A DNA stretch of 64,000 bases from assembly GCF_000026545.1 (NCBI RefSeq), contig NC_011601.1. One strand, given 5' to 3'. The position numbers were made by a program, and so were the translations under genes. The stretch's first letter is position 1. Each line of letters begins with the position of its first letter. The notes below the pieces were generated by a model. It searched no databases, was not told the origin of the DNA, and saw nothing but the letters and a program-made list of their open reading frames with translations. Positions 13,843-14,492 of this stretch are shown here, one piece after another. This stretch comes from Escherichia coli O127:H6 str. E2348/69 (GTDB lineage Bacteria > Pseudomonadota > Gammaproteobacteria > Enterobacterales > Enterobacteriaceae).

Positions 13843-14492
13843 GCGGATGTATTGCCCCAGTTCACGCTGTTCGGCGCGCGGCAGATAAGGCAGTTCACCA
13901 ATGAGCGGTGCCGGAAGTTTTTTACCGAGCACATCAATGATTTCCGCATAATGCGCAAGTCCTGGATTGATTCGGTTAGCCACCCAGCCAGCATGAGCGG
14001 CAGCCCGTCGTTGGCAATCGCCTGAGCTGTTAGCAGTGCATGGTTAATGCAACCTTCCTGAATACCGACAACCATCAACACTGGCAGTTGTTCCTGCACC
14101 ACCCATTCAGAGAGCGGACGCAAATCATTCATCAGACTGCGCCAGCCGCCAGTCCCTTCTACCACGACATGATCGACTTTATCGGTCAGGTTTGCCAGGC
14201 CGTTTGAAATGAGGGTGTAATTGATTGGGCAACTGTGCGCCACGCTACTTTCTTCTTCGCTTAACGCGATAGGATTAACTGCTTCATAAGGCAGTTCGAT
14301 GGTTGAAACACTCTGCAACACCAGGGCATCTTTATTACGCAGCCCTTCGGGTGTCTCTTTGCTCCCCTTCGCTACGGGTTTATATCCCGCAACCGTTTTT
14401 CCCTGGGAGGCTAACGCTTGTAGCAATGCGCGGGAAACCACCGTTTTCCCTACAGAAGTGTCTGTACCGGTAATAAAGAAACGCTTCAGCAT
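13795..14492 (-). pseudogene. ynfK: dethiobiotin synthetase (BioD) paralog ynfK, apparently frameshifted
   Basis: N-terminal 171 codons with P-loop GTDTSVGKT in one frame (ORF 13839..14504); BioD-like C-terminus (VANRINPG...LPAPLIGELP...) in the -1 frame (ORF 13795..13983); frames switch within about 13984-13996. Confidence 0.7.

Follow-up and report, generated by a model that had tools for sequence, protein, structure and literature searches.

The ynfK gene, a paralogue of bioD, is found in two pieces in the stretch of 64,000 nucleotides from the EPEC strain Escherichia coli O127:H6 E2348/69 that was analysed here (the window, to which positions refer unless another record is named). Two open reading frames occupy the locus on the minus strand, one at 13839..14504 with a P-loop N-terminus and one at 13795..13983 with a BioD-type C-terminus (VANRINPG...LPAPLIGELPYLP). 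The question is whether the gene has been broken by a genuine mutation or whether an intact YnfK is encoded, or made, in spite of the split.

The ynfK locus and the position of the lesion

The locus lies between mlc and the convergent clcB, in the order ynfL-mlc-ynfK-clcB-dmsD, and this synteny identifies the gene as the YnfK orthologue. YnfK of K-12 (b1593) is encoded at the same mlc-clcB locus, and at least 80% of the locus is matched at 95% identity or higher in 5,420 of 5,426 genomes. The whole ynfK pseudogene covers 13795..14492 on the minus strand and is 698 nt long, which is 696 + 2 and leaves a remainder of 2 when read as codons. Its 3' end overlaps that of clcB by 48 bp (13795..13842), the length that the first-pass annotation had given for a restored gene and that is obtained from the PGAP coordinates. 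The same overlap is present in K-12 and in other strains with an intact gene, and is normal for the locus. The convergent neighbour clcB is itself intact (12550..13842, plus strand, PGAP). Its start has been called at a GTG at 12526 in the open reading frame and at 12550 by PGAP (430 aa), and a 418 aa form is given in Logan.

Alignment of the window DNA with CP059840.2, another E2348/69 assembly, and with strain IAI39 places a 2 nt insertion, GC, at 13991..13992 on the minus strand. It falls within the Ile167 codon, where ATT has become AT-GC-T (codon 1 being the annotated ATG at 14492). The window has CTCAT-GC-TGGCTGG where both of the others have CTCAT-TGGCTGG, and by inspection the placement is unique; the intact allele reads CTCATTGGCTGG (CATTGG) and the insertion allele CATGCTGG. 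When the GC is removed in silico, an open reading frame of 696 nt is restored that encodes 231 aa and is identical to WP_000919226.1, a widespread allele. The lesion is thus within the interval 13984-13996 proposed by the first-pass annotation, which had also correctly supposed a net change of +2 nt and an intact protein of 231 aa. Reference YnfK cannot be aligned in a single frame across the site.

The insertion generates a perfect tandem, GCTG-GCTG. Simple slippage was considered as its origin, but the GC does not duplicate neighbouring bases and there is no homopolymer at the site; no convincing template for it was found.

The 217 aa product of the frameshifted gene is made up of 166 native codons and 51 aberrant residues. 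The native codons, 1-166 (13995..14492, minus strand), include the P-loop GTDTSVGKT and are supported by translation, by alignment to BioD structures and by the TIGR00347 profile. Translation then gives the out-of-frame tail, MLAGWLTESIQ...NTSA, and its stop at 13841-13839 (13839..13994, minus strand). The native C-terminus, residues 168-231 (GWVANRINPG...LPAPLIGELPYLP...), is stranded with its stop in the other frame (13795..13989, minus strand) and corresponds to BioD residues ~171-224, including Asn175. Both the open reading frames and the translation agree with the earlier assignment of a BioD-type C-terminus to a second frame ending at 13795. Compared with K-12 YnfK, the E2348/69 frame is broken at codon 167 and the 65 C-terminal residues are not made.

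Two details of the earlier reading need to be changed. A-G-W is indeed encoded in both frames across GCTGGCTGGGTGG, as can be seen directly in the sequence, and the lesion does lie between the GLPL codons and this motif. However, the alanine that had been assumed to be native is a product of the insertion and its new tandem, the native junction being GLPL-I-GWVAN. Similarly, the N-terminal part is in the frame that ends at 13839, but it has 166 native codons from the ATG at 14492 rather than 171. The higher count started at a GTG further upstream (14504) and took in the methionine that the insertion creates.

A split gene might still be expressed in full if ribosomes changed frame, by -1 or +2, at a programmed site. 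Both frames are free of stops over their shared stretch (gene positions 450-652), and a slippery heptamer of the classical type, A AAA AAC, is in frame at 13923. This heptamer is the only one in frame and is not at the junction; it is 23 codons downstream, so that residues 167-190, GWVAN among them, would remain scrambled after a slip at that point. Its bases are the ordinary GKK codons of intact alleles, and the two-frame arrangement is not conserved, with 2 of 5,426 genomes having it. Lacking both a heptamer at the junction and conservation, the locus was rejected as a programmed frameshift site, and there is practically no likelihood that full-length YnfK is still made in this way.

Loss of the BioD-type fold

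By its sequence, restored YnfK is clearly a member of the dethiobiotin synthetase family, whose defining reaction is the ATP-dependent formation of dethiobiotin from 7,8-diaminopelargonate. It aligns from end to end with the sequences of the E. coli BioD structures (PDB 1a82, 1dad and 1byi; E = 5e-65), with the P-loop and GWVAN conserved. The P-loop (residues 9-17) has the form G-x-x-T-x-V-G-K-T and is aligned to GTDTEVGKT of BioD, and N172 of YnfK is aligned to BioD position 175 (Asn175). Identity to the strain's own BioD is 50%, and the precomputed Pfam matches are to PF13500 and PF01656 (AAA_26/CbiA). The TIGR00347 bioD profile gives 134.2 bits for the restored protein and 127.5 bits for the truncated product against a cutoff of 83.3, but it covers residues 6-172 only, so that the truncated form passes as well and the profile is blind to the damage. 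In the window as it stands the GWVAN strand and the PAPLLGEIP segment are out of frame with codons 1-166. The C-terminal part of the fold is in frame only after the GC has been removed, and ynfK of this sequence should therefore be seen as a pseudogene of the family rather than as a functional member.

The inserted GC shifts the ribosome in codon 167, so that 51 unrelated residues are added before the stop at 13841-13839. The 65 residues that complete the fold are missing from this product; they hold the C-terminal PAPL(I/L)GE(L/I)P segment as well as the GWVAN strand, whose Asn corresponds to BioD Asn175. In BioD structures, Asn175 and residues 204-206 reportedly form the pocket for the adenine of ATP; a literature search on BioD Asn175 gave no match. 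With elements of this pocket removed, activity would be lost and the frameshifted enzyme is presumably dead.

Could the 217 aa protein keep part of its dethiobiotin synthetase activity, or some other one? It retains 166 of 231 residues in native form, with the P-loop and the substrate-binding core, and its score on TIGR00347 is well over the cutoff. Against this, a core beta-strand, the equivalent of BioD Asn175 and the whole C-terminal segment have been replaced by unrelated sequence. Moreover, even intact YnfK is said to be a weak dethiobiotin synthetase that is expressed poorly and anaerobically. Residual activity is considered highly improbable.

In K-12, FNR directly activates ynfK, and FNR binding upstream of the gene has been reported (Myers et al. 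2013, PMC3688515). A scan upstream of ynfK in the window found only a candidate with three mismatches, TTGCGCTATCTCAA on the gene strand (14578..14591, minus strand). This weak FNR-like palindrome agrees with the consensus at 7 of 10 positions and is ~90 nt upstream of the ATG; matches of this quality are common by chance. On the other side of the gene, 42 nt beyond the stop of ynfK and inside the clcB coding sequence, there is a GC-rich hairpin with a perfect 12 bp stem (AACCGGGGAGTA-GCUGA-UACUCCCCGGU, minus strand, 13725-13753). The minus-strand RNA fold has an energy of -29.9 kcal/mol (z = -3.5). The hairpin has a poor T-tail and may be a ynfK transcription terminator embedded in clcB.

Authenticity of the insertion and differences between stocks

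The frameshift is already known, being recorded in GenBank and RefSeq annotation. The exact 217 aa product is GenBank entry CAS09225.1, named by its depositors 'dethiobiotin synthetase, with altered C-ter by frameshift mutation', and it is through this accession and its contig of 4,965,553 bp that the link to the original E2348/69 reference is made. The full window is identical by BLAST to positions 1687214-1751213 of LT827011 ('EPEC E2348/69 variety 2'). Both this record and LT903847, an engineered derivative, are O127:H6 and match the window at ynfK with 100% identity, and in both PGAP has 13795-14492 on the minus strand as a bioD pseudogene CDS, 'frameshifted'. They were built from MiSeq reads at 112-210x by reference-guided assembly, with NC_011601 as the mapping reference, plus de novo assembly. 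Because they are partly reference-guided, their independence from the original reference is incomplete.

This dependence is what an error in the original reference would need in order to spread, with the extra GC passing from a faulty sequence into the assemblies guided by it while ynfK is actually intact. The assembly CP059840.2, also labelled E2348/69, fits such a reading, since its ynfK is intact and, over 64,000 bases, it departs from the window in nothing but the missing GC dinucleotide. However, the 217 aa product is also encoded in a Logan contig from run ERR294530. This contig was assembled de novo with no reference, and over 20,101 bp, which take in the insertion, it agrees with the window at 100% identity. 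This speaks against a read error peculiar to the reference. The LT records were assembled de novo as well, at the coverage given above, the site is neither a homopolymer nor any other context prone to indel errors, and the original annotators looked at it and called a frameshift mutation. From the ERR294530 contig, the depth of the MiSeq data and the nature of the site, a sequencing artefact is unlikely, and an error propagated from the reference is given very little credence. What is present is a frameshift pseudogene, with 2 nt more than its intact orthologues in the window and in an independent de novo assembly.

The first-pass annotation had held that reads differing from the window by 1-2 nt at this point would speak against the frameshift. 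The two available comparisons fall on different sides, the ERR294530 assembly being the same as the window and CP059840.2 being without the two bases. The source of ERR294530 may be the same physical stock as the reference. Literature searches on CP059840 and ERR294530 gave no match, and ynfK does not occur in the text of the Cepeda-Molero supplement.

Of 5,426 complete genomes, only 2 have the exact 61-mer across the insertion, and the alignments of all other close relatives cover 899 nt, compared with 901 nt for the sequence with the insertion. Coupled with the intact gene of CP059840.2, this distribution indicates that the insertion is a derived and very recent one, apparently confined to a single stock lineage (reference, Sanger/Imperial). 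The absence of the two bases from CP059840.2 makes the lesion specific to a stock. Either the stocks of E2348/69 differ or one of the assemblies is wrong at the ynfK site.

The second of these would be the case if the isolate first taken from the patient had already carried the frameshift and the intact allele of CP059840.2 were an artefact, for example of polishing by homology. Polishers guided by homology can 'repair' true frameshifts, and one could have mended this one. CP059840.2 is a version-2 record, and its sequencing method was not found in the literature search. Within the same window, uidC (glucuronide porin, 38679-39944, minus strand) is a pseudogene with an internal stop in both LT827011 and CP059840.2. 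The uidC lesion is thus common to both E2348/69 stocks, whereas that of ynfK is not, and its survival in CP059840.2 argues that there has been no blanket repair of that assembly. Nor is there any further difference between CP059840.2 and the window in 64 kb. Such an origin in the patient isolate has a fairly low probability, and it bears on where the lesion arose and not on its nature.

Recurrent inactivation of ynfK and its significance

The gene has been lost repeatedly elsewhere. In Shigella sonnei, ynfK has been inactivated 8 independent times while bioD has been left untouched (PMC6811581). A 216 aa allele, in which the A-run at the GKK codons has slipped, is encoded on 124 contigs, including one of S. 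flexneri K-272. Among further public alleles, one has an in-frame deletion of 30 residues and two are truncated early; in strain WGS1363 (NZ_CP141204.1), ynfK is interrupted by an IS1 insertion. As in these other E. coli and Shigella, the same gene has been lost and bioD kept in E2348/69, but the lesions differ, and no lineage other than the E2348/69 reference one shows the GC insertion at codon 167. The other alleles are broken at the GKK A-run, at residue ~137 and at residue 147, or have the in-frame deletion. Since the lesions are at differing positions, codon 167 was rejected as a mutational hotspot.

It is conceivable, on the strength of the eight S. sonnei losses, the A-run slip alleles, the IS1 insertion and the GC insertion, that ynfK loss is not only recurrent but selected, rather than neutral, in E. 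coli and Shigella that are adapted to a host or passaged in the laboratory. As the GC is the only difference between two E2348/69 assemblies over 64 kb, it could then mark a divergence of stocks that is relevant to fitness. This reading is speculative and rather improbable. If it were true, the divergence would concern a strain in worldwide use, human volunteer studies included.

The same genome has an intact canonical bioD, within an intact bioABFCD operon (LT827011), and no auxotrophy is to be expected for this reason. In contrast to bioD, ynfK lies outside the bio operon, is regulated anaerobically and has been inactivated in E2348/69. The cost of its loss is expected to be nil under aerobic conditions and small at most under anaerobic ones, and a lack of phenotype is likely. 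In the region of LT827011 that holds the bio operon (768000-784000), a TnpB/InsQ-type gene has inserted between ybhB and bioA, and the end of a prophage with nleH, a truncated cif and espJ is directly upstream of the operon.

Some other features of the window were recorded. A Ter-type replication terminus site, GGATGTTGTAACTAAAG (31505-31521, plus strand), is 12 nt upstream of tus, where none is expected by chance; it has one mismatch to the TerB core. Its presence near tus places the window within the replication terminus region. An IS200C transposase gene (50446-50904, minus strand) is situated between add and ydgJ, and a copy encoding the same protein (WP_000526113.1) is found beside ompX in another part of the genome. 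The 3' part of rsxC (56388-56911, plus strand) contains tandem repeats of ~96 nt, seen as BLAST self-matches that are offset by ~96 bp and have 89-90% identity.

Taken as a whole, the evidence makes it highly probable that ynfK, an FNR-activated anaerobic BioD paralogue that is redundant with bioD, carries a genuine inactivating frameshift in the reference E2348/69 stock lineage. In E2348/69 it is a real but ordinary pseudogene of a redundant paralogue. The importance of the lesion is very small, as it has already been annotated and the paralogue is both redundant and weakly active. The GC dinucleotide does provide a simple marker, typable by PCR, for telling the CP059840.2 stock apart from the reference (Sanger/Imperial) lineage. 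For the reference stock of E2348/69, YnfK should be taken as missing in metabolic models and in experiments on anaerobic biotin.
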